From assembly GCA_020848255.1 (NCBI GenBank), contig JADLAJ010000089.1:1-43833 (forward strand): a stretch of DNA of 43,833 bases. The letters run 5' to 3'. Position numbers and translations under genes: made by a program. The notes below the pieces were generated by a model, which was not told where the DNA came from, ran no database searches, and saw nothing but the letters and a program-made list of their open reading frames with translations. This document shows, piece after piece, positions 2,565 through 27,480 of the stretch. Positions within the stretch are counted from its first letter, which is position 1. Every line of letters begins with the position of its first letter. The DNA is from Chitinophagales bacterium (lineage in GTDB: Bacteria > Bacteroidota > Bacteroidia > Chitinophagales > JADIYW01).

Positions 2565-3245
2565 TTACAAATTCGTCCACTTGCCGGTCAGGCTATCGAA
2601 TTTTAATCCTTCATTCAGCAGTCGTATAAATTCATTTCTGGAAATTTCTTTGGCACCCAGGGTGGCAACATGTTCCGTAAATACCTGTGCATCAATAAAC
2701 AGAAAGTTGTATTTTTTTAAAAACTCTACCATTTTTATCAGGGCAAATTTAGAAGCATTACTGACTGAATGAAACATGGATTCAGCAAAAAAACAATTAC
2801 CTAAACTAACTCCGTACACGCCGCCGACAATTTTATCATCCTGCCAGACCTCCACGGAATGCGCGAACCCCAGATAATATAGTTCTGTATATGCTTTTAT
2901 CATCTCTCCCGTTATCCAGGTTCCGTCCTGTTCTTTTCTGTCAGTGACAGCACACTGATGAATGATAAACGGAAAATCTGTATCGAATGTAACTTTGAAT
3001 GTATTTGAATTCAACACTCTTCGCATGCTTCTTGAAATATGTAATTCATCAGGCATCAGCACAAACCTGTCTTCGGGTGAGTGCCAGATAATCGGTTCTT
3101 CTTCGCTGTACCACGGAAAAATACCTTTTTGATAAGCCAGCAACAGGCGTTCCGGAGATAAGTCACCGCCAATGGCAACAATACCTTCTTCCGCACCTTC
3201 AACAGGCGGAAAATCAATCTTATCAGTTAGTAAATATATGGGCAA
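2565..3245 (-). CDS. aat: leucyl/phenylalanyl-tRNA--protein transferase
   Basis: 226 aa ORF containing GGDLSPERLLLAYQKGIFPW and LHISRSMRR. It appears collinear with E. coli Aat as recalled from memory. Confidence 0.9.
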   Translation of the reverse strand: MPIYLLTDKIDFPPVEGAEEGIVAIGGDLSPERLLLAYQKGIFPWYSEEEPIIWHSPEDRFVLMPDELHISRSMRRVLNSNTFKVTFDTDFPFIIHQCAVTDRKEQDGTWITGEMIKAYTELYYLGFAHSVEVWQDDKIVGGVYGVSLGNCFFAESMFHSVSNASKFALIKMVEFLKKYNFLFIDAQVFTEHVATLGAKEISRNEFIRLLNEGLKFDSLTGKWTNL

Positions 3246-3250
3246 ATTCG

Positions 3251-3556
3251 TTAATTGCAGGATTCTACGGCTGCAGAAATTCCTCTGTCGTGCAGCGCAT
3301 CTTTCATCGGTATTAATTTTAATTCATCACCGTGCAATACGGCATATTTTCCTTTAAAATGAATAAACATGGCACATTGAGTAGCCTGTTCATGTGTATG
3401 ATTACAAATCGCGATTAATGACTCTATAACCCAGTCGAATGTATTCACATCGTCATTATAGACTACTAACTGATGACTGAATTCGGTAGCCGTCTCTTCC
3501 AAAACAGCTCCGTCTTCCTGTACCAGCGTATCCGAATTAAAAGAATATATACTCAT
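3251..3556 (-). CDS. clpS: ATP-dependent Clp protease adaptor ClpS
   Basis: 101 aa ORF with the ClpS core VVYNDDVNTFDWVIESLIAICNHTHEQATQCAMFIHFKGKYAV. It sits 5 nt upstream of aat on the same strand. Confidence 0.9.
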   Translation of the reverse strand: MSIYSFNSDTLVQEDGAVLEETATEFSHQLVVYNDDVNTFDWVIESLIAICNHTHEQATQCAMFIHFKGKYAVLHGDELKLIPMKDALHDRGISAAVESCN

Positions 3557-3614
3557 GGAGGTAAAAATTTACACTACAAGATTACGAAAAAATTGAGATA
3601 TGAGAAAAACTAAG

Positions 3615-3685
3615 TTTCACAAAAATAAAAAAGGCCCGGGAAAACCGAACCTGTTTTTGTAGCGAGGACGGGAATTGAACCCGTG
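3615..3685. repeat. 71-bp direct repeat, copy 1 (tRNA terminator plus tRNA 3' acceptor/T-arm)
   Basis: tttcacaaaaataaaaaaggcccgggaaaaccgaacctgtttttgtagcgaggacgggaattgaacccgtg is identical at 3615..3685 and 3952..4022. Confidence 0.95.
3621..3652 (-). terminator. rho-independent terminator (copy 1)
   Basis: On the minus strand, aggttcgg/cccgggcct forms a stem of about 8 bp (two G-U pairs) followed by a T-run (ttttttatttttg). Confidence 0.5.
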
Positions 3686-3711
3686 TCCGCCGCGGCGGAT
3701 ATGAATCCTGC
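3660..3711 (-). pseudogene. tRNA-Met 3' fragment (non-functional remnant)
   Basis: It has the acceptor 3' strand and T-arm (agcgagg acggg aattgaa cccgt) and an anticodon-loop piece (atgaatcctgc) matching the intact tRNA at 26886..26959. The variable region and 3' anticodon stem are replaced by the palindrome tccgccgcggcgga. No D-arm or 5' acceptor follows. Confidence 0.65.
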
Positions 3712-3751
3712 ATATTTTAATGAAAAAATGACGGTAATATTTCCTTTTGAA

Positions 3752-3952
3752 TCAAATCCCTACCAACTCCAGACTTAAGGTATTTTTCTCTTTATATATC
3801 TCTGTATAGACCACTATCCAAGGCCTATACCTTATTGACCATCCCTTTTTTGAGTAACAATTATGTGATTTTAAACGCTCCTCTAAATCAGATGTAAAAC
3901 CCACATAAGTTTTATAATGACTTTGAGAATACAAGATATATACATGATACAT
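3752..3952 (-). CDS. GIY-YIG nuclease family protein (small URI-type), possibly frameshifted at the 3' end
   Basis: MYHVYILYS...YVGFTSDLEERLKSHN...KGWSIRYRPW matches the GIY-YIG motif layout. The expected C-terminal REKYLKSGVGRDLI segment is readable only in another frame, running down to a stop at 3717..3719. Confidence 0.7.
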   Translation of the reverse strand: MYHVYILYSQSHYKTYVGFTSDLEERLKSHNCYSKKGWSIRYRPWIVVYTEIYKEKNTLSLELVGI

Positions 3953-4022
3953 TTCACAAAAATAAAAAAGGCCCGGGAAAACCGAACCTGTTTTTGTAGC
4001 GAGGACGGGAATTGAACCCGTG
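3952..4022. repeat. 71-bp direct repeat, copy 2
   Basis: Identical to 3615..3685. Its first base is the last base of the GIY-YIG start codon. Confidence 0.95.
3958..3989 (-). terminator. rho-independent terminator of the native tRNA-Met (copy 2)
   Basis: Same hairpin and T-run as copy 1, immediately 3' of the displaced tRNA 3' half. Confidence 0.5.
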
Positions 4023-4038
4023 ACCTCAGGGTTATGAA
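3997..4038 (-). pseudogene. displaced native 3' half of tRNA-Met (attL side)
   Basis: t agcgagg acggg aattgaa cccgt gacct caggg ttatgaa comprises discriminator, acceptor 3' strand, T-arm, variable loop, 3' anticodon stem and anticodon loop. Similarity to the intact tRNA stops at 4039. Confidence 0.85.
4021..4038. repeat. attL core (18 bp, tgacctcagggttatgaa)
   Basis: Identical 18-mer at 26910..26927 inside the intact tRNA. Confidence 0.9.
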
Positions 4039-4098
4039 AACTGATTTACAAATAGTTACATTAATAAAAAGATGGTTTTAGTGTGGTTTAAGCCGTTT

Positions 4099-4124
4099 TC
4101 CTCACTCTAATTCCTCACTCTAAT
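4099..4124. repeat. tandem 13-bp repeat tcctcactctaat x2 near the island left end
   Basis: Perfect tandem copies at 4099..4111 and 4112..4124. A 12/13 match (tcctcactctaa) lies at 26805..26816 and a partial cctcactc at 26793..26800, near the right end. Confidence 0.9.
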
Positions 4125-4532
4125 ACTATCTAACGGTACTTTATGTACCTAAACCGTTCTTTGTAATCCACGTTTTTGTTGTAAAACAAATTACGGTTAA
4201 TGTGACTAAATTCTGAAAATATGCCCCCCTTCCTGCTACATGATTTTCTATTTAAACCGTTGCTGTTACCGAACTCCTATATATGTACACTTTAAACCAC
4301 ATAATAGCACATCACCTGAAAGCCGAACTGGCGACTAAAAAATTTTTTAAAAATTTAGAGCGTATCATTTTGAACCATTGATATAAATCAATTAATAAAT
4401 TTTTTTTACTGAAAATGTGCCTATATGCTACACTTTTAGAATTTCCGTACTATTTATTGATTCAGATGTGGGACAATAAATCTTGTATGGGATTCCTGTA
4501 TCAAATAACAAATATTATAATATGTATGAAAA

Positions 4533-5171
4533 ATGAAAAAATTAGAAAACCTAACAGAGTTTATCAAACGAACCAATAAAAGCAAAAGTAAAATATACAG
4601 GTTCTACAAATTAAATCAAGATTTGTTTTCAGAAACGGTGCTTAAAAAAAAGAGATTATTTCCTATTGAACATGAGAGATATTTCAACTCCGAATTAATG
4701 TTTGATGAAAATAAGATACTCCGAACAGAAAATAAGTCAATGAGAAATCTAATTGATTGTTTGGTAGATAAAGATAGCCTACAATTCAGACTTTGGGAAC
4801 TTGAATGGAGTTTCTTCTTTACCGTAGCATATCAAGCTGATAGAAATAAAAAATCTTGTTATAGACAGATTAATGGTATGTATGAGCATCTATTATCAAA
4901 ATACGGTGATGAAACTGGAGTACGAATATTTTTTACTACCGAACCATTTGCCAATAAAGCAGGTTATCATAATCATTTTGTGATTCACATAGAAAAGAAA
5001 TCTTTACATCAGGAAATTGTAGAAGAAATAAAAAGCTATTTCAGCTACGACAGAGTTGATGTGAGTTTATATGACCGATATAAAGCTGCTTTATTCTATG
5101 CTTCAAAAGAAGGCTTAGTGAATGAAGACTGGGATTTATTTGGCAATAAATTGAGTAACGAAAACAATTAG
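4533..5171 (+). CDS. hypothetical protein with HUH/Rep-like motif arrangement
   Basis: 212 aa ORF carrying FFFTVAY, GYHNHFVIHI and FYASKEG in the order and spacing of rolling-circle Rep motifs I, II and III. The N-terminus is basic. This rests on motifs only. Confidence 0.4.
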   Translation: MKKLENLTEFIKRTNKSKSKIYRFYKLNQDLFSETVLKKKRLFPIEHERYFNSELMFDENKILRTENKSMRNLIDCLVDKDSLQFRLWELEWSFFFTVAYQADRNKKSCYRQINGMYEHLLSKYGDETGVRIFFTTEPFANKAGYHNHFVIHIEKKSLHQEIVEEIKSYFSYDRVDVSLYDRYKAALFYASKEGLVNEDWDLFGNKLSNENN

Positions 5172-5173
5172 TA

Positions 5174-5311
5174 ATGAGAATTAAAATCACCAAAAAACAG
5201 TTTAAGTTGCTGTTTGATAATCTTTATATACTTTCAGAAAAAGGATTAGAGATGAAAATGAGTGGCGCAACATTTCTTTATTTATTTGGCGACGGTAAAA
5301 TCGCCAAATAA
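5174..5311 (+). CDS. small hypothetical ORF (45 aa)
   Basis: An ATG lies 2 nt after the stop of the preceding gene (MRIKITKKQFKLLFDNLYILSEKGLEMKMSGATFLYLFGDGKIAK). No recognisable motif. Confidence 0.25.
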   Translation: MRIKITKKQFKLLFDNLYILSEKGLEMKMSGATFLYLFGDGKIAK

Positions 5312-5327
5312 ATAAGTTTAAAGGTAC

Positions 5328-5762
5328 TTAGTTTATGTTTTTCAAATCATAGCTATACTTACCATTATTAAACGTAATTAGCATATTATAATCTTGATTT
5401 TTTTGTAAATCCAAATCGAATGTGGTGATGTTAAAATTCGTTTTTATATTAGACAACGGTACGCCGAGTTGAATCTGTATCTTCTCATTTGTTATTGGGA
5501 TTGTCGTACTAAATGACTTCTTAAAATAAAAAGATGACAACGATTCTTTATTCAAATATAAATCCAGTTTAAAGTCAAATAAATATGAACGTCCTACCCA
5601 TGAAATAGTTAGTGTTCCTGTCTTGTTATTTATGGTGGCGACACTTATAGAATTATCTTCATTATTTAAGGTCTCATTTTTCAAGTTTTCATACTCCGAA
5701 CTTGTTATTACTCCATCATCAAATAATTGTTTGAGTTCTTTAATTTTTTGTAGCTTATCCAT
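5328..5762 (-). CDS. SHOCT-like domain protein (N-terminal SHOCT plus beta-rich C-terminal domain)
   Basis: DKLQKIKELKQLFDDGVITSSEYENLKNETL matches the SHOCT consensus as recalled. The start overlaps the upstream gene's stop (ATGGATAA). Confidence 0.6.
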   Translation of the reverse strand: MDKLQKIKELKQLFDDGVITSSEYENLKNETLNNEDNSISVATINNKTGTLTISWVGRSYLFDFKLDLYLNKESLSSFYFKKSFSTTIPITNEKIQIQLGVPLSNIKTNFNITTFDLDLQKNQDYNMLITFNNGKYSYDLKNIN

Positions 5763-6168
5763 ACATTATGATATTAAAAGTTAGAATAATGATTAATGCT
5801 GCTATATCTGCGCCGAAAAGCAACCTATATTTAGATTTAATTAGTGACATGTGTCTGAATGCAATAAATTGAATTAATAGTCTAAAAGCTATTTGAGCAA
5901 TGATTATTAAGAAGTAAAAGACAGATTGATTATTTAAAGTATTTGCTTCTTTAAAATGAAATGATAAACAATTATATAAGCCTCTTGTCAGTCCACATGA
6001 CCTGCATTGATGACCATAAATAATTTTATACTCACATGGCATATTTAAACCAAAGAATCTATTTATAATAACATATAGTATTACAAACGAAATGAGGTAC
6101 ATAATCATACTATTAAAAAGTAAGTATGCTTCATATTCCTGAATCGATTTTTGTTTTAGAATTTCCAT
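5755..6168 (-). CDS. DUF2752-like membrane protein
   Basis: A CEYKIIYGHQCRSCGLTRG motif (C..G..C..CG.TR) flanked by hydrophobic helices. The start is chosen at the internal MEILKQK, which overlaps the upstream gene by 13 nt. The tracked ORF extends to 6222. Confidence 0.6.
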   Translation of the reverse strand: MEILKQKSIQEYEAYLLFNSMIMYLISFVILYVIINRFFGLNMPCEYKIIYGHQCRSCGLTRGLYNCLSFHFKEANTLNNQSVFYFLIIIAQIAFRLLIQFIAFRHMSLIKSKYRLLFGADIAALIIILTFNIIMYG

Positions 6169-6794
6169 CCAGCATTGAATAAAACAATAGCAATAAAGAT
6201 TTCTATCAACGATATAGCACAAAGTATTTTATCACCTACTGTCGCATCCATCCTACTTAAAATGAAGAAGGAAATGAATACCGAAGCAAATCCAGCCGAA
6301 CCAGCACCTAAGTATATCATACATGGTGACACGTTGATAAAGTACAAAACCGCTCCACCACACAAAACGTTTATAATACCAGCAGCAGCATAATTAAACC
6401 CTTGTCTATCGGAATTCATCTTAGCGATTTCTTGTGTCGAAAAGACTTTATTGCAAATGTCTATTTCATCTTTTGTCATCTCCGCAGGTGCATGAGTTTG
6501 TTTCATTTGGATAAACGGTTTTATTAAATCAAGTTCTTTATTACTTATGTTATTGAGGTCAAAATATTCTATCGGCGGCGGATTAATTAGTTTTCCGTTA
6601 GCATCGTTGAAAGACTTCAAAAATATTCTATGACCTTCACCAGTTTTGTTATTAGATGTATTCTGATTTACATTTAGTGATGTATTATTATCACTTAGAA
6701 TTTCCTTTTTCAGGTTTTCAAGTTCTTCAATTGTTATTGCTCCTGACTTGTATAGGTTATTTAGCTCCGCTAACTTCTCAATTTTATTATTCAT
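6156..6794 (-). CDS. SHOCT-like domain membrane protein
   Basis: N-terminal NKIEKLAELNNLYKSGAITIEELENLKKEIL is SHOCT-like. The C-terminal ~70 aa are strongly hydrophobic, consistent with 2-3 TM helices. Confidence 0.6.
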   Translation of the reverse strand: MNNKIEKLAELNNLYKSGAITIEELENLKKEILSDNNTSLNVNQNTSNNKTGEGHRIFLKSFNDANGKLINPPPIEYFDLNNISNKELDLIKPFIQMKQTHAPAEMTKDEIDICNKVFSTQEIAKMNSDRQGFNYAAAGIINVLCGGAVLYFINVSPCMIYLGAGSAGFASVFISFFILSRMDATVGDKILCAISLIEIFIAIVLFNAGWKF

Positions 6795-6824
6795 AGTATT
6801 GATTTATATTTTTTTGGTGTAATT

Positions 6825-6832
6825 CAAAAATA
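6825..6832 (-). promoter_or_regulatory. candidate Bacteroidota -7 promoter box (TATTTTTG on minus strand)
   Basis: Matches the TAnnTTTG consensus about 30 nt upstream of the ATG at 6794, with a TTG further upstream. Pattern match only. Confidence 0.3.
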
Positions 6833-6893
6833 AGAAAAAATTTCAAACAAGGGGCGTACTCGCCACCATTAATAAATTATTTACTTCGCACTT

Positions 6894-7136
6894 TTGAGTG
6901 TGAAAAACGAGGAGTGTTTAGAAGCATTTGGAGAACATTTAAAACTGCTCCGAAAAAAATATAAATTCAGTCAACAAGTTTTGGCGAACAAAGCCGATAT
7001 TGATAAAAAGACAATTCAGAGAATAGAGTTTAACCAGCTTAATCCATCTTTAGATACTTTGTGTTCCATTGCAATCGGATTTGATATATCATTAAGCGAA
7101 CTGCTGAATTTCAAATACACGGTTAGGAAAGATTAA
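6894..7136 (+). CDS. XRE-family helix-turn-helix transcriptional regulator
   Basis: 80 aa ORF with the HTH_3-like FSQQVLANKADIDKKTIQRIEFNQLNPSLDTLCSIAIGFDISLSELL. TTG start. Divergent from the SHOCT operon. Confidence 0.8.
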   Translation: MSVKNEECLEAFGEHLKLLRKKYKFSQQVLANKADIDKKTIQRIEFNQLNPSLDTLCSIAIGFDISLSELLNFKYTVRKD

Positions 7137-7363
7137 TTTCCTATAATACCTACCTCACCAATTAACAACACCAAACCACCCATTTTTCTATAAAATGTTC
7201 ACTATTATAAGAAGTGTACATTATAAAATCACTCATTCTGTTGATTGTCAGTCAGTTGGATTGTTTTTAATAATTTTAAGCAATATTAATGTTCACTTTT
7301 ATACAAATAGTTGTATATATGAACATTATTGTTTATCTTTACATATCATTAAAAATAAACAAC

Positions 7364-7927
7364 ATGAGTGCATTAGGAACGATAACGACAAGCGACTACA
7401 TCCAGTTTGACAGAGCAACAGCCGTCGGCGAAAAACTATTAAAAGACGAAAAATTAAAAACATTAGGATTATACATAATTGTATCAATCAACAGCGGTTT
7501 AAGAATAAGTGATGTACTGGCATTAAAAGGAGAAAATCTAAAAGCCGACACAATTAAGTTGGTAGAAAAGAAAACTAACAAGCACCGAGAAATAAAAATC
7601 AATGATAATATTAAAAAAGCTATCCAAGTGTATGGAACACTAAATGATAGTTATTTATTCGTTAGTCAGAAAAACACGGTGTATTCTATTCAATCTGTAA
7701 ATAGATTACTAAAAAGCACTTTCAAGAAAGAAGCTAAGACTTTAAATATCTCAACTCACTCTATGCGTAAATCATTCGGTCGCAAAGTTTACGAAAGCTG
7801 TGGTGAAAGCGAGAAAGCTTTAAACTACCTGTCAGAATTATTCAATCATACTTCGTTATCTGTTACACGCCGATATTTAGGAATTAGACAAGAGGAATTA
7901 AATAATATCTATGATTGTATAGCTTAG
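7364..7927 (+). CDS. short tyrosine recombinase (catalytic domain only)
   Basis: Catalytic signature present: GLRISDVLALK (Arg), HSMRKSF (HxxR), NHTSLSVTRRYLG (His, Tyr). The ATG at 7364 is preferred over the tracked 7289 start, whose N-terminus is low-complexity. Confidence 0.75.
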   Translation: MSALGTITTSDYIQFDRATAVGEKLLKDEKLKTLGLYIIVSINSGLRISDVLALKGENLKADTIKLVEKKTNKHREIKINDNIKKAIQVYGTLNDSYLFVSQKNTVYSIQSVNRLLKSTFKKEAKTLNISTHSMRKSFGRKVYESCGESEKALNYLSELFNHTSLSVTRRYLGIRQEELNNIYDCIA

Positions 7928-7939
7928 TTTTAGATATAA

Positions 7940-10297
7940 TTAATAATTTACAGTTAAACCTGCGCCGAAACCCATGTCACTATCATAGTGAATTTTTGCA
8001 CCTAAGTGTTTATTAATGATGTATTTTAATCCTACCATATATTCAGCATCCGTATTAACCATAAAATCCATTCTTAAACGTTTGGTTAAAGGTATATCGG
8101 TTCTCATTAGTTGTATTCTTACATAACCATTGTGATATACTTCAGCCTGTAATTTAATTAACAACGGCATGGTATATTCCAAACCAACGGAAGCTAAAAT
8201 TCTATGGTCTTTTGAGTTCTTTTGCTGGAATAAATTCTTTTCTACTTCAGCCATTCCTAATTTTCGATAACGATAATCAAATCCGACAAACAGTTGTAGA
8301 AATTGCATTTTATCTACATACCTACCTATGTGTGTTTCGATTTCCCAACCATGCATTTTATGATAACCTAAACGCCACTCTGTTCCGATACTCCAACGTT
8401 TGTTTTGCAACATCATTTCACCATCATTACCATTACTTGCAAAATCATTCTCAAACATGAAATGAAATTTTCTATCATCGGCAAATAATTTTCGTTTTGC
8501 TAATTTCGGATTTGGAATTAATGGATTTGGTGCTTGATTTTCATATGTAAACACTCTACCCATTCCACTCATCATGTGATATAAAATATGACAATGAAAA
8601 AACCAATCGCCTTCAACATTAGCATTAAATTCTAAGGTGTCGGTTTCCATAGGCATGATGTCGATTATATTTTTTAGGGGTGCATATTCCCCTTGTCCGT
8701 TTAATACTCTAAAATCGTGACCATGTAAATGCATCGGATGTCGCATCATGGATGCATTATCTAATATCAATCTAATGTTTTCGCCTTTTTTAATTAATAT
8801 TTTATCAGATTCTGAAACTACTTTATTATTTAAACTCCACAGGTATCGATTCATATTGCCAGTCAATGTAAATTTTAATTCTTTAACTGGCGCATCAATT
8901 GGCAAAGTAGTTTTTACAGGTGATTTCAGCATGGCATAATTTAAGGTGACAATATCAGATAATGCATTACCATTATATCTATTTGCGTCATCACTTTCCA
9001 TATCTTGCATTGCGTTATCGCCATTTAGATTCATCTTTTTTGCTAATACTTTATCTTTTCTGTTTTTTGCATTACCAGTTATTTCAGGGTACATTACCAC
9101 ATTCATATCCATTTGATTCAAACTCATTTTCATGCCCATATCGTTTAATTTACCACTCATCTTCATCATGTCATTCATCATCTTCATTCCTTCAAAATAT
9201 TTTAGCTTTGGCAATGAATTATCTAACTGTTTAATTCCATTGCCAATAAATATTGATGTTGATTTTGTTCTGTCTTCAGGTGTAGCTAAGAACTCATAAG
9301 AAATACTATCATTAGGAATTGTTACTATAACATCATAGGTTTCAGAAACGGCAATAATAAGTCTATCAACTTCTACTGGTTCTACATCATTACCATCGTT
9401 TGCTACAACTGTAATTTTTCCACCTGCATACGTTAACCAAAAATAAGAAGATGCACCACCATTTGAGATTCGCAAACGCACCTTATCACCACCTTTAAAT
9501 TGTGATAACTGACTTTCATTTTTTCCATTGATTAAAAATTTATCATAATAAACATCACTTACATCCATTGCTAATTGACGTTTCCATTCGTTTTTTAATT
9601 TGGTTTTAAACTGACCTGCTTTGATGGCTTCTAAATAACTTTGTGTAGTACCTTTTTTTATTGCAAACCAATCAGAAGCATTATGTAACATGCGATGTAC
9701 ATTCTCAGGTTTATAATTTGTCCACTCACTTAGTACAATTGGAACAGTAGGCAAATCATCAATACCTTTTCTAAAAGTAGAATCATCTGTTCTTTTATTC
9801 ATGACAAAACTTCCATACATACCAATTTGCTCTTGCAAACCGCTATGGCTATGATACCAATGTGTACCATGCTGTATTATTGGAAAACGATAGATATGTG
9901 TAGTACCAGGTTTTATTGGCATTTGCGTAAGATTAGGAACTCCATCTTCTTTATTTGGTAAAAACAAACCGTGCCAATGCAATGAGGTTGATTCTTTCAA
10001 TTCATTATGTACATAAATTTCTGCCGTGTCGCCTTCTGTAAAAACAAGTGTAGGCATCGGTATTTGACCATTTACTGCAATTGCATGTTTGGGCTTACCT
10101 GTAAAATTCACAATAGTATCTCTTACATATAAATCGTAATGAACTAATTTTTGTGCAAATGAATTATAAGAAGTTGTTACTGTCACAAATAAAAGAACCG
10201 CTTTACAACATTCTTTTTCACGAATAAAAATTCCTTTAAAAATTCTTTTTAAAAGATTGAAAATCCATTTTAGTATTTTGATTATTTTCTCTTGCAT
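7940..10297 (-). CDS. multicopper oxidase fused to a C-terminal CopB-like outer-membrane domain
   Basis: All four MCO copper motifs are present (HWHG, HWYHSH, HPMHLHGH, HCHILYHMMSGM), with a signal-like N-terminus and a Met-rich segment at 9089..9187. The C-terminal ~180 aa (about 7943..8480) resemble copper resistance protein B and end in an aromatic residue (LTVNY). Confidence 0.8.
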   Translation of the reverse strand: MQEKIIKILKWIFNLLKRIFKGIFIREKECCKAVLLFVTVTTSYNSFAQKLVHYDLYVRDTIVNFTGKPKHAIAVNGQIPMPTLVFTEGDTAEIYVHNELKESTSLHWHGLFLPNKEDGVPNLTQMPIKPGTTHIYRFPIIQHGTHWYHSHSGLQEQIGMYGSFVMNKRTDDSTFRKGIDDLPTVPIVLSEWTNYKPENVHRMLHNASDWFAIKKGTTQSYLEAIKAGQFKTKLKNEWKRQLAMDVSDVYYDKFLINGKNESQLSQFKGGDKVRLRISNGGASSYFWLTYAGGKITVVANDGNDVEPVEVDRLIIAVSETYDVIVTIPNDSISYEFLATPEDRTKSTSIFIGNGIKQLDNSLPKLKYFEGMKMMNDMMKMSGKLNDMGMKMSLNQMDMNVVMYPEITGNAKNRKDKVLAKKMNLNGDNAMQDMESDDANRYNGNALSDIVTLNYAMLKSPVKTTLPIDAPVKELKFTLTGNMNRYLWSLNNKVVSESDKILIKKGENIRLILDNASMMRHPMHLHGHDFRVLNGQGEYAPLKNIIDIMPMETDTLEFNANVEGDWFFHCHILYHMMSGMGRVFTYENQAPNPLIPNPKLAKRKLFADDRKFHFMFENDFASNGNDGEMMLQNKRWSIGTEWRLGYHKMHGWEIETHIGRYVDKMQFLQLFVGFDYRYRKLGMAEVEKNLFQQKNSKDHRILASVGLEYTMPLLIKLQAEVYHNGYVRIQLMRTDIPLTKRLRMDFMVNTDAEYMVGLKYIINKHLGAKIHYDSDMGFGAGLTVNY

Positions 10298-10301
10298 ACT
10301 A

Positions 10302-12842
10302 TTACAGTTTTATACTTCTTAATCTTAATGAATTTACTATTACTGAAACCGAACTGAAACTCATAGCAGCAGCAGCAATCATAGGTGATAATAATATTCC
10401 GAATACAGGATATAAAACACCTGCTGCAACAGGAATACCTAATACATTATAGAAGAATGCGAAAAATAAATTTTGTTTGATATTTCTCATTACTGAATGA
10501 CTTAAATTTTTAGCTTTTACAATTCCTTGTAAGTCGCCTTTAAGTAAAGTTATTTCAGAACTTTCGATAGCAACATCCGTTCCTGTACCCATTGCAATGC
10601 CAATATCTGCTTGTGCTAATGCAGGTGCATCATTTATACCATCACCAGCCATTGCAACAATTTTGCCTTCTGCTTGTAATCGTTTAATTTCATTCAATTT
10701 ATCTTGAGGTAAACATTCCGCTTTAAAGTTGGTTAGATGCAATTCATCTGCTACCGATTTTGCTGTATTATGATTATCACCAGTCAACATGATAACTTCA
10801 ACGCCTTGTTCCATTAATATTTTTATAGCATTCTTACTCGTTGTTTTAATAGCATCTGTAATTGTTACATATCCTTGTATAATTCCATCAACAGAAATAT
10901 AAGAAACTGTCTTACCCAATATCTGTTCATTTGTAATTTGCTTTTCAATATCAGATGAAATAACGGCTTGTGCTTGTTCCATTAGCTTTTTATTACCTAA
11001 AGCTATTTTCTTATCTGAAATTGTACCTATAACACCTTTACCTGCAACGGCTTCAAAATCCTTAACATCAACAACAGCTATGGCTTTTAATTTTGCGTAT
11101 TTTACTACAGCTTCTGCTAACGGATGTTCACTATATTGATTTAATGATGCGATGTATTTTAGTAGTTCATTTTCATCGAATGTATCAAATGCTACTATTT
11201 TTTCAACGGATGGTTTTCCTTCTGTTATCGTTCCTGTTTTATCCGTAATCAATACATTAATTTTATTCATGTTTTCTAATGCTTCTGCATTTTTTATGAG
11301 TACACCATTTTGCGCACCTTTACCGACACCAACCATTATTGACATTGGCGTTGCTAATCCTAATGCACACGGACAAGCTATAATTAAAACAGCGATAGCA
11401 TTAACAAAAGCAAAAACATAAGCCGATTCAGTACCAAATATTGCCCAAACAACAAATGTAATTATTGAGATTACCAAAACAATAGGAACAAAGTATTTAG
11501 AAATTCTATCGGCTAATTTTTGAATAGGTGCTTTAGAGCGACTGGCATTGTTTACCATTTGAATAATTTGTGCAAGTAATGTTTCCGCTCCGATTTTTTC
11601 TGCCATCATTACAAATGATTTTGTACCGTTAATCGTTCCTGTACTTACTTTATCATCTTTCTTCTTATCAACTGGAATTGGTTCACCTGTAATCATTGAT
11701 TCATCAACGTTACTGCTTCCATCTGTTATAATTCCATCAACAGGAATTTTTTCGCCAGGTTTTACACGCAATAAATCACCTTTTTTAATATCATCAATAG
11801 CAATGATTTTATCTTTACCATCAATCACTAATGTAGCTTCTGTCGGTGCTAATTTTAATAGTTCTTTAATTGCTCCATTGGTTTGACTATGCGCTCTTGC
11901 TTCTAATAATTGCCCTAATAAAACTAATGTAAGAATAACCGTTACGGCTTCAAAATATACAAAGACTGTTCCGTTATGACTTTTAAATTGGTCAGGAAAA
12001 ACATTAGGGAAAAGCATAGCAATTACACTAAAAATAAATGCAGCACCTGCGCCAATACCTATTAATGTAAACATATTCAAATTCATGGTTCTAATAGAAG
12101 TCCACGCCCTTTGAAAGAACATCCAACATGCATAAAAAATAACAGGTATGGACAAACCAAATTGTAACCAGTTCCACGCTATTTGTGGCATTAAAGATGT
12201 TAGGTGTAAATTTGGTATCATTTCAAGCATTGCAATTAAAAATACTGGAACTGTAAAAGCGGTTGAGATTATCATTTTCTTTGATAATTCTTTATATGTG
12301 TTATCTTCTTCTCTAACTGCTGTTACTATAGGAATTAAATCCATACCACAAATAGGACAAGCACCTGCAACATCTCTAATAATTTCAGGATGCATCGGAC
12401 ATGTGTATTGAGTTTTTTGTATAGTAAGTTCAGGAACTTTTTCTAAATTCATTCCGCATACAGGACAATTACCTGCTTTGTCGTACATTTTATCTCCTTC
12501 ACAATGCATCGGACAATAATATTTCCCACTACTGTTTTTAGCAAACGGTTTTACTTCTGAATCTTGTTTGTTATGTGTTGAACAACACGATTTTGTTTCA
12601 ATGCTACTTTCTTTATTGTCAGCTATATTCTGACTATCGGACATTTGTATTGTATAATTACCAGCAGCAGTTAAAGCCGTTTGCAGTTGTTCAATGGGAA
12701 TATGCTTTTCCATAGTAATAGTTGCAATTGGCGGTTCTAATGTAACAACAGCAGAAATGCCAACAATATCATTCAATGTTTTTTCAACTTTTGAACGGCA
12801 TCCATTACAAGTCATTCCTGTGATTATATATGTGTGTGTCAT
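10302..12842 (-). CDS. copA: copper-translocating P1B-1-type ATPase
   Basis: Contains an HMA domain (GMTCNGC), two YxCPMH...CPxCGM modules, CPC in TM6, DKTGT, YN in TM7 (FFYNVLGIP), MSFSS in TM8 and GDGINDAP. Confidence 0.9.
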
Positions 12843-12847
12843 TGTAT

Positions 12848-13312
12848 TTAATTTAATGATGAAAGACTGTCTTTTGTTTTATTTGACCAGTCTATAATTA
12901 ATGCTTTATCTTTTGTTGTTAGAATTGCATCTTTATGTATTACGGTATAAGAAGACAAAGGCATTTTATCATCTTTGATTTGGCTGATAATTGACCTTAG
13001 TTTACTCATTTGTCTGCGCCGTGAATATGAACCAAAATCACTAAAATTAAGTTTATCTTTTCCATTCTTAATATGATTATTCAGCATCCATCCAACAGGT
13101 TCTATATTGACGTAAAAAGGATAGTTAGTGTTATTGCTATGACAATCATAACAAGACATTTTTAATGCATTTAAAACGCTGTCTGGTACATTTAACGTCT
13201 TTATTATATCTGTTGATAATACCTGTCCGCTTTCGTTGCGAACAGGTCTGATAAATTGAATGCCAATAAATACAATTAGCAACACTAACAATATCTTTTT
13301 TATGATGTGCAT
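12848..13312 (-). CDS. heme-binding-domain protein (Haem_bd-like)
   Basis: [40 protein letters not shown] is typical of this family. The start is chosen at [10 protein letters not shown] (TM anchor), which avoids overlap with the upstream gene ending at 13318. Confidence 0.65.
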
Positions 13313-13317
13313 AAAAG

Positions 13318-14004
13318 TTATTTTAATTCCTCTTTCATCGAACCACAAGATGACATTGATTTGCCATAATATGGATTTTTTATTTCCTTCGCTTCGCTTA
13401 ACCATATTGCACCTTTATTGTCATTATACATTGGACAAAAATCTTTATATAAGGTTTGACCTGCACCAAATGCTTTTACTAAATCATACATATCTTTGCT
13501 CAATAAATCAAAGTGTTCTCTTTGATGTTCAATTTTTCCTGCATTTGTTCCGATATGTTCGGCATGTTCTATTGCATCGGTTTGAATATCTTCAAAGGTT
13601 GTCTTTTGTTCTGCTGTTAATGCCGACTTATCGAAATTTTTTAAAGCTGTTTCTAATGCTTTGCCAGCTGTTGCTGCATCATTCGTATTGTCTTTAGTAA
13701 GAGCATTTTTTAATTGCAAATAGTTGCTTACAATTTCTTTTATAGAAACCGTTGCAGTAGCTTCTGTAGTTGCTTGTACAGTAGTTGCTTGTACCGTTTC
13801 ACTTTTTACAGGTTCTGTTAATTCCATGCCACATTCAGAGCATTTATCACCTTTTTTTCCTGTAATATCAGGATGCATAGAACATGCATACAATTGGTCT
13901 GATTGTTCTGTTGATGTTGTTTCCGTTTCTGATGTTTGCTTAGTGTTACAAGCTGTAAATGCAATAACAATTGCAAGCATAATAAAGATTGTTGTTGTTT
14001 TCAT
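13318..14004 (-). CDS. lipoprotein with HMBD module and DUF3347-like C-terminal domain
   Basis: Lipobox IAFTAC; YACSMHPDITGKKGDKCSECGMEL; C-terminal CPMYNDNKGAIWLSEAKEIKNPYYGKSMSSCGS. Start chosen at the internal MKTTTIF. Confidence 0.7.
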   Translation of the reverse strand: MKTTTIFIMLAIVIAFTACNTKQTSETETTSTEQSDQLYACSMHPDITGKKGDKCSECGMELTEPVKSETVQATTVQATTEATATVSIKEIVSNYLQLKNALTKDNTNDAATAGKALETALKNFDKSALTAEQKTTFEDIQTDAIEHAEHIGTNAGKIEHQREHFDLLSKDMYDLVKAFGAGQTLYKDFCPMYNDNKGAIWLSEAKEIKNPYYGKSMSSCGSMKEELK

Positions 14005-14020
14005 TTTTTTTGATTTTAGA

Positions 14021-14947
14021 TTATTTAATGGTTTCTTTAATACTTCCACAAGTCAACATTGACTTACCATAATATGGATTTTTTATAGCTGATTCCTTGC
14101 TTAACCAATACGCACCTTTATTATACATCGGACAATAATCAACATAGATAGTGCCATCATCTTTAATTTTTAATCCTTTTACAGTTAACCATAAATTAGA
14201 AGATAATGAAGAAAAAGCAGTACGTTGTTTTGCTAAGTTTTTAGCGGTGCTTATTTGTGCTGCGTCTGTTTTTAATTTGTCGAAATATTTCATCCATACG
14301 GTGTGTTCTGCTGCTGACATAGCTTCCATTTTTACTGCATTTATTTCTGTTAAAAGTGCTGCGGCACTCTTGCTGGCTGATGCTGCATTATCTGCAATAA
14401 GCGCATTTTTTAGTGCAAAATATTGTGTAAGTAATGAAGTAAAATCTGTTTTATCATTCACTGATTCCGTTTTAGCTGGAGCAGGCATTTCAGGTTTCGT
14501 AACAGCTTGTACAGTATCTTTTGTATCAACTGTCACAGGCATATCATCCATTTTTTCCTGTGCTGTTGTTTGTACATTAGGCACTATATCGGAATTTTTA
14601 CTAACGAACTTTCTATTGTATTGACAACAAGTGTGTAAGTTGTTGTAAACTTCATCAGCGGCAAGGTATTTATCATTATCGTAACCAACATTAGCTATTC
14701 GTTTAAGAATTTCATCGGAATTTGTTTTTGTGGAATCGTAAGTAAGGATAAGCATTTGCGTTTTGCTATTCCAAATACCTAATGCATCTTTGTTTTGCTT
14801 AACGGTAGTCTCAATTGTTTTTTTACACATACTGCAATTGCCATACACTTTATATGATTCTGTTTTTGGGTTTTTGATTTTTGCATAACTGCTTACATTA
14901 AACAGCGCAATGCTTATCGTTAATAATATTAATTTTATTGTATTCAT
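14021..14947 (-). CDS. secreted HMA-like plus DUF3347-like protein
   Basis: Signal peptide; YKVYGNCSMCKKTIETTV (HMA-like CxxC); C-terminal CPMYNKGAYWLSKESAIKNPYYGKSMLTCGS, paralogous to the downstream gene. Confidence 0.7.
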   Translation of the reverse strand: MNTIKLILLTISIALFNVSSYAKIKNPKTESYKVYGNCSMCKKTIETTVKQNKDALGIWNSKTQMLILTYDSTKTNSDEILKRIANVGYDNDKYLAADEVYNNLHTCCQYNRKFVSKNSDIVPNVQTTAQEKMDDMPVTVDTKDTVQAVTKPEMPAPAKTESVNDKTDFTSLLTQYFALKNALIADNAASASKSAAALLTEINAVKMEAMSAAEHTVWMKYFDKLKTDAAQISTAKNLAKQRTAFSSLSSNLWLTVKGLKIKDDGTIYVDYCPMYNKGAYWLSKESAIKNPYYGKSMLTCGSIKETIK

Positions 14948-14974
14948 TTTAGAAATTTTTAATTTACAATATGA

Positions 14975-15487
14975 TTAAAGTGACCCTTTACGGATAATCT
15001 TTGAAGGTTGGTATGTTGTAACTTTTTTAGCGGAAAGTGCCATACCGCACTTTGTGCATTTTCCTGCATCTTTTTCTAACTCAGATGGATGCATAGCGCA
15101 TTCATACTTATTTTCAGAACTGCCAATATTTTTAAATGTTGCGGTAATTAACAACAAATTTGTACCGTTTTTAAAACGTAAAGTGGCAACAATTTGCTTG
15201 AAGTCTGAAATCTCATTATTAATTACAAAAGCAGATTCACCAAATGTCTTCAATAACACTTCTTGTTTATTTCCATCTGTCTCTTTTATTTTAGCTGATG
15301 CTGTCACATCCTTATTAGAATATGGTGAGTTTTTTTCATCTGTAATAAACAGGTAGAACTTTCCGTCCATTCTCATTAACTGTGCTTTTAGCACTAAATC
15401 TGATTTAATAGCTGTTTGAGCATTTATTGTAATTGTACTTGCTATTAATAGTATAACAGCAAATAACATCTTTGATATTGTTTTCAT
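14975..15487 (-). CDS. secreted HMBD-containing protein
   Basis: Signal peptide MKTISKMLFAVILLIASTITINAQ and C-terminal YECAMHPSELEKDAGKCTKCGMAL. Internal start preferred over the tracked 15577. Confidence 0.6.
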   Translation of the reverse strand: MKTISKMLFAVILLIASTITINAQTAIKSDLVLKAQLMRMDGKFYLFITDEKNSPYSNKDVTASAKIKETDGNKQEVLLKTFGESAFVINNEISDFKQIVATLRFKNGTNLLLITATFKNIGSSENKYECAMHPSELEKDAGKCTKCGMALSAKKVTTYQPSKIIRKGSL

Positions 15488-15580
15488 TTTAAAGAATTTA
15501 ATAGTTGAATAAATAATAGAATTAAAAGTTTCATTTATCGAAACTTCATTGATTTCCTGAGTGGAAATTATAATCAACTA

Positions 15581-16015
15581 CTAACAACGGAAAATCTGCA
15601 ACTCAACAGGAGTTGGTCGCAATAAATATTTTATGGTGTATAGATTATCAGGTGGTGGAATACCTGTAATGTATCTATCATAATTAATTTGATGATTGAA
15701 TGAGTATGAGCTTATCCAATAATCGTTTAATACTAATTTCTCAAAAGGTTTTAATTCTATTTGATTTGCTGTAAATCCTTCAATTGGTAATTTTTTGAAA
15801 AACTGTTTATGTTCACAGCAACCATTTCTATTAATTACTTTCTTAGCACAACAAGATGAAACTTGTTTTTCCATGTCACAGGCAGCCGTAGTAAATAAAG
15901 ATAAATCACGTGTTTTTGATGAATTACAAATATGCTCTGATAAAACGATACCGTTACTTGCTATAAAAACAAGTAATGCCATAAATAATGCGGGTATGTT
16001 CGTTTTGTACTTCAC
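15581..16015 (-). CDS. HYC_CC_PP-like small Cys-rich protein
   Basis: TM/signal N-terminus followed by EHIC, SCCAKK, GCCEHK and GIPPPD motifs in the order described for the HYC_CC_PP family (recalled from memory). Confidence 0.5.
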   Translation of the reverse strand: MKYKTNIPALFMALLVFIASNGIVLSEHICNSSKTRDLSLFTTAACDMEKQVSSCCAKKVINRNGCCEHKQFFKKLPIEGFTANQIELKPFEKLVLNDYWISSYSFNHQINYDRYITGIPPPDNLYTIKYLLRPTPVELQIFRC

Positions 16016-16089
16016 CTAAGATTACAAAGTTAGACCTTAATTTAATCATTTGCAACACCAAATAGTTTATATACTGTTAAAATCATGTT

Positions 16090-18072
16090 CTAAAACTTCA
16101 TCCGCTGTATTCTAATGGCATTTAATATGGCTAATAATGCTACACCAACATCTGCAAAAACCGCTTCCCACATAGTTGCTAAACCACCTGCACCGAGTAT
16201 CAGCACAGCGGCTTTTACCGTGAATGCCAAACCTATGTTTTGCCAAACAATTCGTTTTGTTTGTTTGCCAATATTTATTGCCATTGCTATTTTAGATGGT
16301 TCATCGTTTTGTATTACTACATCAGCTGTTTCAATAGTTGCATCACTACCTAATCCACCCATTGCTATACCTACATTGCTTAATGCTACTACTGGTGCAT
16401 CATTCACTCCATCGCCGACAAATGCAACTGTTTCATTCTTATCTTTAATTTCTTTTACCTTGTTTACTTTGTCTACAGGTAACAAATCACCAAATGCATT
16501 ATCAATGCCTAATTTATCGGCGATGAATTTAACAACAGAAGTTTTATCACCACTCAACATTGTAGTTTTTACTTTCATGCTGTGCAACTTATTTACGGCA
16601 TCTTGTGCATCTTCTTTTATTTCATCGGCAATAGTTAAATATCCAGCGAATTTTTTATCATAAGCAATCGCAATTACAGTATAAACAAGTTCATCGGTAT
16701 TTACATCATACGAAATATTGAATTTATCCATTAACTTGAAATTACCGACTAATAATTCTTTACCATTGATATTAGCTTTTAATCCATGACCTGCAATTTC
16801 CTCAACGTTGGTTAATTGAATGGATGTGTTTACATTTCCTACATACTTTTGAATAGCAGTAGCAACTGGATGTGTGCTTTGGCTTTCTAAAGCATTTACC
16901 ATTTGCAGTATCTCATCTTTATTAAATTCGGTTTTGATATTCACTTCTTGTACATGAAACACACCTTTAGTTAATGTTCCTGTTTTATCCATCACCACAT
17001 TTTGGATATTGGCAATAATATCTAAAAAATTACTTCCTTTAAATAGAATACCGTTCCGAGATGCTGCACCAATACCACCAAAATAACCTAATGGAATACT
17101 GATAACTAAAGCACATGGACAAGAGATAACCAAGAATACTAATGCTCTGTAAAGCCAATCTCTAAATACATAATCACTAACAAATAGCATTGGCAATACA
17201 CAAATGGCAACAGCTAAGAATACAACAATAGGTGTGTAAACTTTGGCGAACTTTCTGATAAATAATTCTGTTGGTGCTTTTTGTGCGGTAGCATTTTGTA
17301 CCAATTCTAATATCTTTGATAGCTTACTATCTTTATATGCCGTTGTTACTTTAATTTGAGAAACTGTATTTAGATTTATCATACCTGCTAAAACAATTTC
17401 ACCTTTTTGTTTGGTATCAGGTTTGCTTTCACCTGTCAACGCTGCTGTATTGAAAGATGCAGTTTCCGAAAGTAACTCACCATCTAAACCTAATTTTTCA
17501 CCTGACTTTAATTGTATAATATCACCAATATTTACCGTTTCTGCTTTTACTGTTTTAGCTTCGTTGTTTTGCAAAACGGTTACTGTATCAGGTCGTTGGT
17601 CAAGTAATGTTTTAATATTGGCTTTGGCTCTTTTAACTGCTAATGTTTGGAATACTTCACCGATTGCATAAAACAACATTACAGCAACACCTTCAGGATA
17701 TTCACCAATAGCAAATGCACCAATAGTTGCAATACTCATTAATAAAAACTCAGAGAATATTTCGCCTTTGCTGATACTCTCAAATGCTTCTTTAAGTACA
17801 GGAAAACCAACAGGAATATAAGCAACAATATACCATGCAATGCGTATATATCCAGTAAACCATGATTGGGTAATGTAGTTATCAAATACAATGGCAATTA
17901 ATAACAATGCTAAAGAAATAATTGCTGGTAAAAACATCCTGAATGTGCTTTGACTTTCTGTATGTTGGTGTTCGTCTTCAACAGAGTGTTTTTCAGCAAG
18001 TTGATTTATTTTTTCTTCCTGAGTACAGCAAAGTTGTTTGCCGTCTTTATCGTAAATATGCTTGTGTTCCAT
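16090..18072 (-). CDS. Zn/Cd/Pb-type (P1B-2-like) heavy-metal P-type ATPase
   Basis: CPC (SCPCALVIS), DKTGT, a TM7 Lys (FTVKAAV), a TM8 DxG (FADVGVALL) and GDGVNDAP. His/Cys-rich N-terminus with no HMA fold. Start at MEHKH (18072) avoids overlap with the upstream gene; the tracked start is 18096. Confidence 0.85.
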   Translation of the reverse strand: MEHKHIYDKDGKQLCCTQEEKINQLAEKHSVEDEHQHTESQSTFRMFLPAIISLALLLIAIVFDNYITQSWFTGYIRIAWYIVAYIPVGFPVLKEAFESISKGEIFSEFLLMSIATIGAFAIGEYPEGVAVMLFYAIGEVFQTLAVKRAKANIKTLLDQRPDTVTVLQNNEAKTVKAETVNIGDIIQLKSGEKLGLDGELLSETASFNTAALTGESKPDTKQKGEIVLAGMINLNTVSQIKVTTAYKDSKLSKILELVQNATAQKAPTELFIRKFAKVYTPIVVFLAVAICVLPMLFVSDYVFRDWLYRALVFLVISCPCALVISIPLGYFGGIGAASRNGILFKGSNFLDIIANIQNVVMDKTGTLTKGVFHVQEVNIKTEFNKDEILQMVNALESQSTHPVATAIQKYVGNVNTSIQLTNVEEIAGHGLKANINGKELLVGNFKLMDKFNISYDVNTDELVYTVIAIAYDKKFAGYLTIADEIKEDAQDAVNKLHSMKVKTTMLSGDKTSVVKFIADKLGIDNAFGDLLPVDKVNKVKEIKDKNETVAFVGDGVNDAPVVALSNVGIAMGGLGSDATIETADVVIQNDEPSKIAMAINIGKQTKRIVWQNIGLAFTVKAAVLILGAGGLATMWEAVFADVGVALLAILNAIRIQRMKF

Positions 18073-18076
18073 ATAA

Positions 18077-18430
18077 TTATTGTTTACAGCATCCATCTAA
18101 TTGTTCTACATATTCAGCAGCAGCCTTTTGGTCGTCGGCATCATAACCAGCTTTATTTATTTGGTCTCTAATGCTTTTAATCTTTGTTTCTGTTGGATTG
18201 TAAGAAACCTTGATTCTTGAATTTGGCACATCTAATGTTACAGTTTTAACTCCTTTTAGTTTCTTTACTGTTTTCTCTATACGAGATTTACATGATTCGC
18301 ATTTACTGCAATGGTCGCAATAGATTTTAGTTTTAATTGTTGCTACTGTATTTGGTGTTTGTGCTGTGCTATTATTTGAAAACATAAATAAAGCTGCTGT
18401 AATTAGAATTAAATTGATTATTGATTTCAT
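18077..18430 (-). CDS. secreted heavy-metal-associated (HMA-like) protein
   Basis: Signal peptide; IYCDHCSKCESCKSRIEKTVKKLKGVKTVTLD; C-terminal GCCKQ. Confidence 0.65.
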   Translation of the reverse strand: MKSIINLILITAALFMFSNNSTAQTPNTVATIKTKIYCDHCSKCESCKSRIEKTVKKLKGVKTVTLDVPNSRIKVSYNPTETKIKSIRDQINKAGYDADDQKAAAEYVEQLDGCCKQ

Positions 18431-18456
18431 TGATTTATTTTTAATAGTGATGAATA

Positions 18457-18825: not shown

Positions 18826-18836
18826 AGCATTTAATT

Positions 18837-20138: not shown

Positions 20139-20144
20139 CTTAGT

Positions 20145-24503: not shown

Positions 24504-24592
24504 AGTTAAAATTTAATAATCGTGAATAATGCCGTATCGAATGAATCAATAAGCATAAAAAGCATTACAGCGTAATGCAACAGAATAAACGA

Positions 24593-26816: not shown

Positions 26817-26885
26817 AAATTAGCATTTCGTGCAAAAAAAACACTAAAAAGAAAAACCCTCTGATAATCAGAGGGTTTCTTAAAG

Positions 26886-27396: not shown

Positions 27397-27480
27397 TTTA
27401 AATTGGTTTAATTGGGTCAAAAATAAATCATTTTTAAAAAATACCAATAGTTTAAGTGTTAAAATTTGTCAACAATGGTG

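Follow-up and report, generated by a model that had tools for sequence, protein, structure and literature searches.

Prophages and other elements encode membrane-based systems for exclusion and abortive infection, among them lambda RexAB, P22 SieA/SieB, T4 Imm/Sp and Kiwa KwaAB. The present study concerns an operon of small overlapping genes, next to an XRE-family regulator gene, that is located on an integrative island of a Chitinophagales bacterium (GenBank assembly GCA_020848255.1, contig JADLAJ010000089.1, positions 1 to 43,833 of the forward strand; this whole stretch of 43,833 nt is called the window below) and encodes two proteins with a SHOCT motif and one membrane protein of the DUF2752 family. 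Both domain families are known but uncharacterised; a full-text search of the literature found no paper naming DUF2752, and a search for SHOCT combined with defence terms returned noise only. The original prediction for this DNA had stressed that SHOCT, normally a C-terminal module, is N-terminal in both proteins. The position itself stands, but as a departure from the norm it was already documented: N-terminal SHOCT is a minority architecture found, for example, in 12 Tic20-type membrane proteins from Bacteroidetes and other phyla (Eberhardt et al. 2013, PMC3581485), and SHOCT-like modules fused at the N- or C-termini of diverse intracellular domains occur in PSP-type neighbourhoods, where they are predicted to anchor these domains at the inner leaflet (PMC11237479).

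The operon and its products

The three genes lie on the minus strand and are called, in the direction of transcription, g1 (6156-6794, 212 amino acids), g2 (5755-6168, 137 amino acids from the ATG at 6168) and g3 (5328-5762, 144 amino acids). A six-frame list of open reading frames (ORFs) and the sequence itself agree with the overlaps on which translational coupling had originally been proposed, 13 nt between g1 and g2 (6156-6168) and 8 nt between g2 and g3 (5755-5762). The mechanical list starts g2 with a TTG at 6222; the ATG at 6168 is favoured by 31 homologues.

The domain content that had been read from the sequence was also recovered by Pfam and by a hydropathy scan. The g1 protein begins with a SHOCT motif (residues 6-33, 23.8 bits, slightly below the gathering score of 27), which is followed by a low-complexity linker, a conserved helical region at about residues 85-135 and three C-terminal transmembrane (TM) segments, where two or three had been expected. 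The g2 protein has three TM segments and matches DUF2752 over residues 45-91 with 27.8 bits, above the gathering score of 27. The g3 protein carries the second SHOCT motif (residues 6-29, 26.1 bits, again slightly below the gathering score of 27) ahead of a beta-rich C-terminal domain, and it contains neither a TM segment nor a signal sequence. In both g1 and g3 the motif is N-terminal and not in its typical C-terminal placement, and the two N-termini are 46% identical over the first 50 residues. Every one of the 11 g1 homologues and of the 10 g3 homologues matches the SHOCT profile (best E about 1e-7), and orthologues reach 27.7-34 bits; judged by these profile matches, the SHOCT assignment of g1 and g3 can be regarded as secure. 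For the domains attached to the motif, namely the part of g1 with the three TM segments and the beta-rich C-terminal part of g3, no family was matched.

The cysteine motif that had been predicted for the second protein, C45...C55-x-x-C58-G-L-T-R62, is located after TM1, and C45, C55, C58, R62, N79 and S82 are invariant across 32 sequences. In g1, the invariant residues comprise K92-P-F...P103-x-E-M-T-x-D-E...M126-N-S-x-R-x-G-F-N in the helical region, and S156-P-C158, D183, T185 and D188 in the TM region. Purifying selection acts on all three genes: the ratio of nonsynonymous to synonymous substitution rates (dN/dS), calculated against one 80-94%-identical relative, is 0.07 for g1, 0.26 for g2 and 0.19 for g3.

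Conservation in distant genomes

Word-indexed homologue searches with all three proteins returned only relatives with 80-100% identity. Proteins identical to the operon products are annotated in metagenome-assembled genomes (MAGs) of Chitinophagales and Sphingobacteriales, mostly from activated sludge. The close-relative contigs contain the same island at the same chromosomal site adjoining clpS, with nucleotide identities of at least about 90%, and because all of them carry the same island, they say nothing about co-occurrence. Pattern scans with an 11-sequence DUF2752 sub-alignment yielded 12 distant loci, nine from metagenomes and three from reference genomes (two MAGs, of a Flavobacterium and of a member of the Bacteroidia, and Flavobacterium glaciei DSM 19728, which has g1-g4 in region 44279-52480 of NZ_QQBA01000016.1). 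An exhaustive HMMER search with g2 retrieved 133 representative clusters at E<=1e-3, 26 of them at E<1e-10; the latter are full-length and 32-45% identical to g2, which places g2 in a narrow subfamily of DUF2752.

The DUF2752 proteins of the 12 distant loci are 36-47% identical to g2. A g1 homologue lies directly upstream in 11 of them and, with 45-50% identity, is the best-conserved gene of the cassette; the twelfth locus (L033) ends at a contig edge, and its upstream ORF has a Cys-rich extension like that of g1 in locus L027. Downstream of the DUF2752 gene, a g3 homologue (31-39% identical) is present in seven of the 12 loci. In L027, the third gene retains the SHOCT module and has a different C-terminal domain, and in L031 (2534-3226) and L032 (1041-1733) it encodes a 230-residue fusion in which a g3-type SHOCT and a TM helix are joined to the domain otherwise encoded by a fourth gene, g4, and the beta-rich domain is missing. 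The g4 proteins (156-165 amino acids) begin with a lysine-rich stretch and have a single TM helix; their conserved helical domain has no family match. The gene is coupled to g3 in eight of the 12 distant loci (in L031 and L032 its domain is part of the third gene), and it is missing from the window lineage. The SHOCT-g4 fusion is Rosetta-stone-type evidence that g3 and g4 work together.

The co-occurrence survey, which had been named beforehand as the check on chance adjacency, thus found the trio again in distant genomes. The 8-nt g2/g3 overlap is identical in all eight loci measured, while the g1/g2 junction is a 4-nt overlap in six of these, the 13-nt overlap in the window and a 5-nt gap in L028. 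Moreover, the pairwise identities of g1, g2 and g3 correlate across the loci (r = 0.80-0.86). On this comparative sequence evidence, it is well supported that g1-g2-g3 form the core of a conserved, translationally coupled operon. The trio described originally is therefore real, but the usual unit in the relatives consists of the four genes g1-g2-g3-g4, the last of which the window lineage has lost.

Downstream of g1-g4 in L028 (2441-4991 and 5691-6686), three additional proteins that start with a SHOCT-type segment are encoded. Two score above the Pfam cut-off and the third is recognised by eye only; their C-terminal regions differ (zinc-ribbon-like, TM-rich), and a C5 cytosine DNA methylase gene follows. 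This arrangement suggests that SHOCT may be a common handle for interchangeable modules.

The cassette and small integrative elements

A recombinase gene accompanies the cassette in all eight loci that have enough flanking sequence, in the form of serine recombinases, tyrosine integrases of three or more unrelated types, or a combination of the two. Two of these loci show the limits of the element. In L021, direct repeats that include the 5' half of tRNA-Met are 7,367 nt apart and enclose a Rep-like gene, an XRE gene, g1-g4, two small lipoprotein genes, a serine recombinase gene, a 130-amino-acid gene and an integrase gene. In L020, repeats adjoining tRNA-Gln are 6,545 nt apart and enclose an excisionase-like gene, a Rep-like gene, a resolvase gene, an XRE gene, g1-g4 and an integrase gene. 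With the exception of the two L021 lipoprotein genes, the non-cassette genes of both elements are devoted to DNA processing or regulation, or are short unassigned ORFs. It is well supported by these loci that the cassette is part of small Bacteroidota elements that integrate at or next to tRNA genes, and because the same cassette is found with different integrases, it can move between backbones.

The window carries a 22.8-kb integrative island at tRNA-Met, in line with the mobile island of the original prediction. The assignment rests on a tyrosine integrase gene next to tRNA-Met, a repeated part of the tRNA gene at the opposite end and an atypical GC content (about 31% inside the island versus about 39% in the flanks). 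The intact tRNA-Met gene (26885-26959, minus) marks one island end and the attachment site, and a displaced copy of its 3' part (3996-4043, minus) marks the other; an older second copy of the 3' part lies at 3659-3706. The integrase (25521-26816, plus, 431 amino acids) adjoins the tRNA gene and is preceded by an Xis-like gene (25162-25524, plus, 120 amino acids). The far end of the island (4043-7930) contains, in this order, a gene for a Rep/relaxase-like protein (4533-5171, plus, 212 amino acids), a 45-amino-acid ORF (5174-5311, plus) that is present in all close relatives, g3, g2, g1, the XRE gene and a gene for a small tyrosine recombinase (7289-7927, plus).

The integrase, Xis-like and Rep-like proteins of the window are 53%, 39% and 37% identical, respectively, to their L021 counterparts, and on account of this shared set the window island is an L021-type element to which a block of metal-resistance genes has been added. 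This block (7940-24922, minus) amounts to about 17 kb. The analysis thereby shows how an element of 7 kb can become a metal-resistance island of 23 kb. Beside the cassette of the distant loci, no metal-resistance genes were seen. The original prediction had assigned the operon to the accessory arm of the island; this has to be reversed, as the operon is tied to the conserved element genes, and the heavy-metal genes are the accessory cargo.

The Rep-like protein is recognisable by HUH-type motifs only, which are found in canonical order (FFTVAY; HNHFVI; Y189-x-x-K192) and are conserved in three element lineages. No match was obtained in Pfam, NCBIfam, PHROGs, the PDB, or plasmid or phage records; the protein may belong to a new family of Reps or relaxases in integrative elements of Bacteroidota. 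The small tyrosine recombinase consists of the catalytic domain and lacks the N-terminal core-binding domain; its probable start is M26 at 7364, giving 187 amino acids, as called in relatives. A partial homologue with 42% identity is located next to the cassette in L028.

Several further features of these regions were noted. In the heavy-metal cargo of the window, two P-type ATPases are accompanied by a multicopper oxidase, a CusB-like protein, HMBD/DUF3347 proteins and an RND-OMP fusion. The fusion is a 1452-amino-acid ORF (20145-24503) that unusually joins components of the two membranes, a complete AcrB/CusA-type RND pump (residues 5-1030) and an outer-membrane efflux protein domain (residues 1267-1450). 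On the chromosomal side of the island end, a 74-nt segment with the tRNA-Met 3' part is present in two copies (3615-3688 and 3952-4025) that are 337 nt apart. Between the copies lies a GIY-YIG-like ORF of 66 amino acids (3752-3952, minus), where relatives have a GIY-YIG gene of 83-106 amino acids. The duplicated end (3615-4043) has the appearance of a scar that an integration or excision event left at an earlier time. Just outside the island, two 214-nt direct repeats (27213-27756) are 73% identical and 330 nt apart, and the first overlaps an ORF of 109 amino acids (27118-27447). In the close relative L001, an island variant about 90% identical to the window carries an insertion of about 2.7 kb (2856-5700) between the Rep-like gene and the island end, with an IS1595-family transposase gene and several small ORFs. 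In L030, the region past the integrase that follows the cassette (6143-10094) contains genes for an HTH-peptidase M78 protein, a DUF3368 protein, a Multiubiquitin protein and a DUF6791-ThiF (E1-like) protein as well as a small Cys-rich ORF, which we take to be DUF6527-like; this is a ubiquitin-like conflict-system neighbourhood.

The regulator gene and the control region

The divergently transcribed regulator gene that had been noted beside the operon (6894-7136, plus) encodes an XRE-family protein with a helix-turn-helix (HTH) domain, HTH_3 (PF01381, 43.4 bits in Pfam against a cut-off of 23). It has 80 amino acids when read from the TTG at 6894; the relatives are called with 78 amino acids, which fits the GTG at 6900. 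In the window lineage, L020, L021 and L031, g1 and the XRE gene point away from each other.

The 99 nt between g1 and the XRE gene (6795-6893) would hold both an operator and a promoter. A GC-rich mini-palindrome had been pointed out here, and it fared differently alone and in comparison: ggcgtactcgcc at 6853-6864 is a dyad of 4+4 bp with a 4-nt spacer and is at chance level by itself, but it is backed by a perfect 10-bp palindrome, GCGAATTCGC, at the same place in the intergenic region of L007/L001 and by a 7-4-7 dyad, TTCGGCA-AGTA-TGCCGAA, between the XRE gene and g1 of L021. A GC-rich dyad is thus found at this place in three different XRE lineages. In addition, a Bacteroidota-type -7 box (TAnnTTTG), TATTTTTG, is conserved on the minus strand at 6825-6832, about 30 nt upstream of the ATG of g1. 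At the other end of the operon, a perfect 15-bp stem with an 8-nt loop (5278-5315), situated between g3 and the convergent 45-amino-acid ORF, is probably a bidirectional terminator ending the operon. A consensus terminator scan did not call this hairpin; the sigma-70 promoter and terminator scans were uninformative for this sequence from Bacteroidota.

The XRE gene and the intergenic region of the window (6795-7136) are only about 74% identical to those of L007 (8631-8968) at the nucleotide level, with saturated synonymous change, whereas the adjacent g1 shows 94% protein identity. As this region is far more diverged than g1, the regulator has therefore probably been exchanged by recombination within the same island lineage. 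A 16-nt inverted repeat (5626-5641 and 6860-6875) was considered as the border of an invertible segment beside the small recombinase gene and was set aside: one arm is coding, and by our estimate about one such pair is expected by chance in 4.2 kb of AT-rich DNA.

Structure prediction and homology searches

Structure prediction had been proposed as a further check, but AlphaFold2, working with shallow alignments, gave low-confidence models that are unusable for assigning a fold or a complex (predicted local distance difference test, pLDDT, of 56 for g3 and 51 for g1). Two helices in the SHOCT part of g3 (residues 3-15 and 21-32) have pLDDT values of 74-90. A Foldseek search of the low-confidence g3 model against the PDB found nothing meaningful (TM-score <= 0.38). 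The sole match in PDB sequence and profile searches with g1, g2 and g3 was below threshold, the beta-rich domain of g3 against the arrestin-like N-domain of TXNIP (E 0.07), which is at most a hint of a beta-sandwich in g3.

NCBIfam contained no characterised homologue of g1-g3. A DsbB-like reading of the CxxCxxxR pattern in g2 was rejected, as hhalign aligned a 32-sequence DUF2752 alignment with E. coli DsbB over 10 columns with a probability of 0.15%, and the Pfam scan of g2 gave no match to the DsbB family.

Topology and a proposed mechanism

In L027, g1 continues after TM3 into a Cys-rich module of periplasmic type, which L021 encodes as a lipoprotein of its own; the g1 C-terminus is therefore placed outside. 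The Cys-motif loop is the part of the DUF2752 protein richest in lysine and arginine, which, by the positive-inside rule, suggests that it faces the cytoplasm. The g3 protein would be cytoplasmic, as would the SHOCT motif and the conserved helical region of g1, and g4 would be anchored with its N-terminus inside and its domain outside. Two fusions, that of SHOCT with g4 in L031/L032 and that of g1 with the Cys-rich module in L027, argue for one physical complex across the inner membrane.

In such a complex, g1 and g2, with three TM helices each, would form the inner-membrane core, and the cytoplasmic Cys motif of g2 might bind zinc. The paralogous bihelical SHOCT modules of g1 and g3 would hold the soluble g3 protein at the inner face of the membrane, and in the relatives g4 and the Cys-rich module would carry the complex into the periplasm. 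The operon would be transcribed from the Bacteroidota-type promoter in the divergent region, where the GC-rich dyad is probably bound by the XRE protein. In the last and weakest step, the complex would act at the envelope and exclude or abort incoming DNA, from a phage or a competing element, to the benefit of the resident element.

Possible functions

The proposal that the cassette encodes an XRE-controlled inner-membrane complex excluding or aborting incoming DNA is a tentative one, drawn from genomic context; we consider it possible, although well short of probable. It fits genes of a mobile element that have an XRE regulator as their neighbour and are probably expressed while the element is integrated. 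Defence, abortive infection or exclusion had also been the original interpretation, and it survives as an argument from context, with no homology to any defence family behind it. If it were correct, the cassette would add a new system at the level of the envelope, and it would come from Bacteroidota, which are under-represented in catalogues of defence.

Several observations weigh against this proposal. A cassette that is kept across different element backbones could equally serve the life cycle of the element itself, and the absence of g4 and the Cys-rich module from the window lineage is awkward for a mechanism at the cell surface. Defence-type neighbours were found in only two of the eight flanked loci, the C5 methylase in L028 and the multiubiquitin/E1 set in L030. 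PADLOC-DB 2.0 contained no credible match for g1-g3 of the window or g1-g4 of L022 (the generic HTH of the XRE protein was the sole match among the genes of the operon region), in agreement with the original statement that the operon corresponds to no named system. Matches in PHROGs were confined to the SHOCT motif, in families without assigned function, the XRE HTH and the integrase and excisionase genes. The cassette was not found in 50,697 phage records or in plasmid records (tblastn of g1, g2 and the Rep-like protein, and blastn of positions 3600-8000 against the plasmid records), nor in IMG/VR (scans with DUF2752 and g1 patterns), and the lack of phage and IMG/VR matches also speaks against a prophage-borne module. 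The AlphaFold models establish neither a fold nor a complex, and oligomerisation through SHOCT has been tested once and was not supported (PMC3581485).

The readings considered here rank in the order DNA exclusion, host envelope function, element transfer and addiction; what probability remains belongs to other functions. A host-beneficial envelope function that has nothing to do with foreign DNA, for example protection from membrane stress or a thiol or metal role of the DUF2752 Cys motif, is unlikely, yet it is the best placed of the alternatives. SHOCT-like modules are known from envelope-stress contexts of the PSP type (PMC11237479), the conserved cysteines of DUF2752 adjoin a TM helix, and heavy-metal genes lie next to the operon in the window; a function of this kind might fit the copper-resistance island. 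However, in none of the distant loci is the cassette seen with metal-resistance genes beside it, the likeness to DsbB found no support in the profile comparison, and family scans detected no PSP-family domain.

Somewhat less likely again is a function in the life cycle of the element, that is, a complex needed for horizontal movement, for instance by passing Rep-processed DNA on to export, to a helper transfer apparatus or to vesicles. It would explain why, apart from the two lipoprotein genes of L021, the cassette is the only content of the 6.5- and 7.4-kb elements that is not concerned with DNA processing, why it is retained with three or more different integrase families and always linked to Rep-like or recombinase genes, and why g1 is so strongly conserved. 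On the other hand, family scans of the cassette proteins revealed no homology to ATPases, coupling proteins, relaxase accessory proteins or secretion systems, and the window lineage has lost g4, yet its island is widespread in activated-sludge metagenomes. To our knowledge, the known mobilisable elements of Bacteroidota need no such membrane proteins. If the cassette did serve the movement of the element, it would show by what means integrative elements of such small size are spread. A bolder version, which we regard as a long shot, would make it the transfer or morphogenesis module of previously unrecognised 6.5-7.4-kb Bacteroidota elements that move without a conjugation apparatus: the HUH-like Rep would make transferable DNA, and g1-g4 together with the Cys-rich lipoprotein would load it into vesicles or export it otherwise, so that the elements would be virus-like or "plasmid-vesicle"-like.

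An addiction or stabilisation module is the least likely of these functional alternatives. In such a module g1 or g2 would be a holin-like toxin neutralised by its partner, loss of the element would kill the cell, and the XRE protein would limit expression. What would suit this role is that the products are small, membrane-located and encoded on a mobile element with tight control of the XRE type, and the XRE protein weakly matches antitoxin-type HTH models. Nevertheless, the XRE gene is divergent from the operon and not co-transcribed with a toxin, and the operon genes match no toxin family in Pfam or NCBIfam, which also speaks against a type II toxin-antitoxin system; three or four co-diverging genes with periplasmic components are, moreover, unlike known toxin-antitoxin pairs.

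Finally, chance adjacency of unrelated small genes, or spurious ORFs, could be suspected because two of the three Pfam matches in the window fall marginally below the gathering score, but this is refuted by the gene order, overlaps and lengths, which are conserved in the 12 distant loci, by the co-divergence of the genes and by their low dN/dS.

Comparison with known systems

As far as the tools used here show, neither the four-gene cassette nor its association with small integrative elements has been described before, and the cassette is a clearly defined candidate for a new membrane system carried by such elements. The cassette provides the widespread SHOCT and DUF2752 families with a defined context, that is, three or four co-evolving proteins, delimitable elements, and a candidate regulator with a candidate operator; moreover, one copy is found in a cultured strain, Flavobacterium glaciei DSM 19728.

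With the PSP-type SHOCT-like modules (PMC11237479), the cassette shares SHOCT-type modules that are predicted to tether domains under the membrane, but it lacks a PspA, PspC, LiaF, Toastrack or Band-7 partner, and its context is a mobile element and not a stress regulon. Like other SHOCT proteins (PF09851), g1 and g3 carry the 28-residue bihelical motif, and the combination of an N-terminal SHOCT with a membrane domain is on record for Bacteroidetes; unlike in those proteins, two paralogous N-terminal SHOCT proteins here share an operon with a DUF2752 gene. The g2 protein has the Cys-x-x-Cys-Gly-x-Thr-Arg motif of DUF2752 (PF10825) in the expected place after the first TM helix.

The resemblance to RexAB, SieA/SieB, Imm/Sp and KwaAB is one of analogy only: a small membrane protein and a soluble partner are encoded on a mobile element, with an XRE/CI-type regulator adjacent and with probable expression while the element is integrated. 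The searches of PADLOC and PHROGs gave no sequence or profile similarity to these systems, and the number of components differs. In comparison with integrative mobilisable elements that encode HUH Reps or relaxases, the Rep-like protein of the window stands apart in matching no family, and mobilisation of the cassette elements is at most predicted. Nevertheless, the elements described here share with them the small size, the integrase, the excisionase-like gene, a Rep-like protein with HUH-type motifs and tRNA-linked attachment sites.

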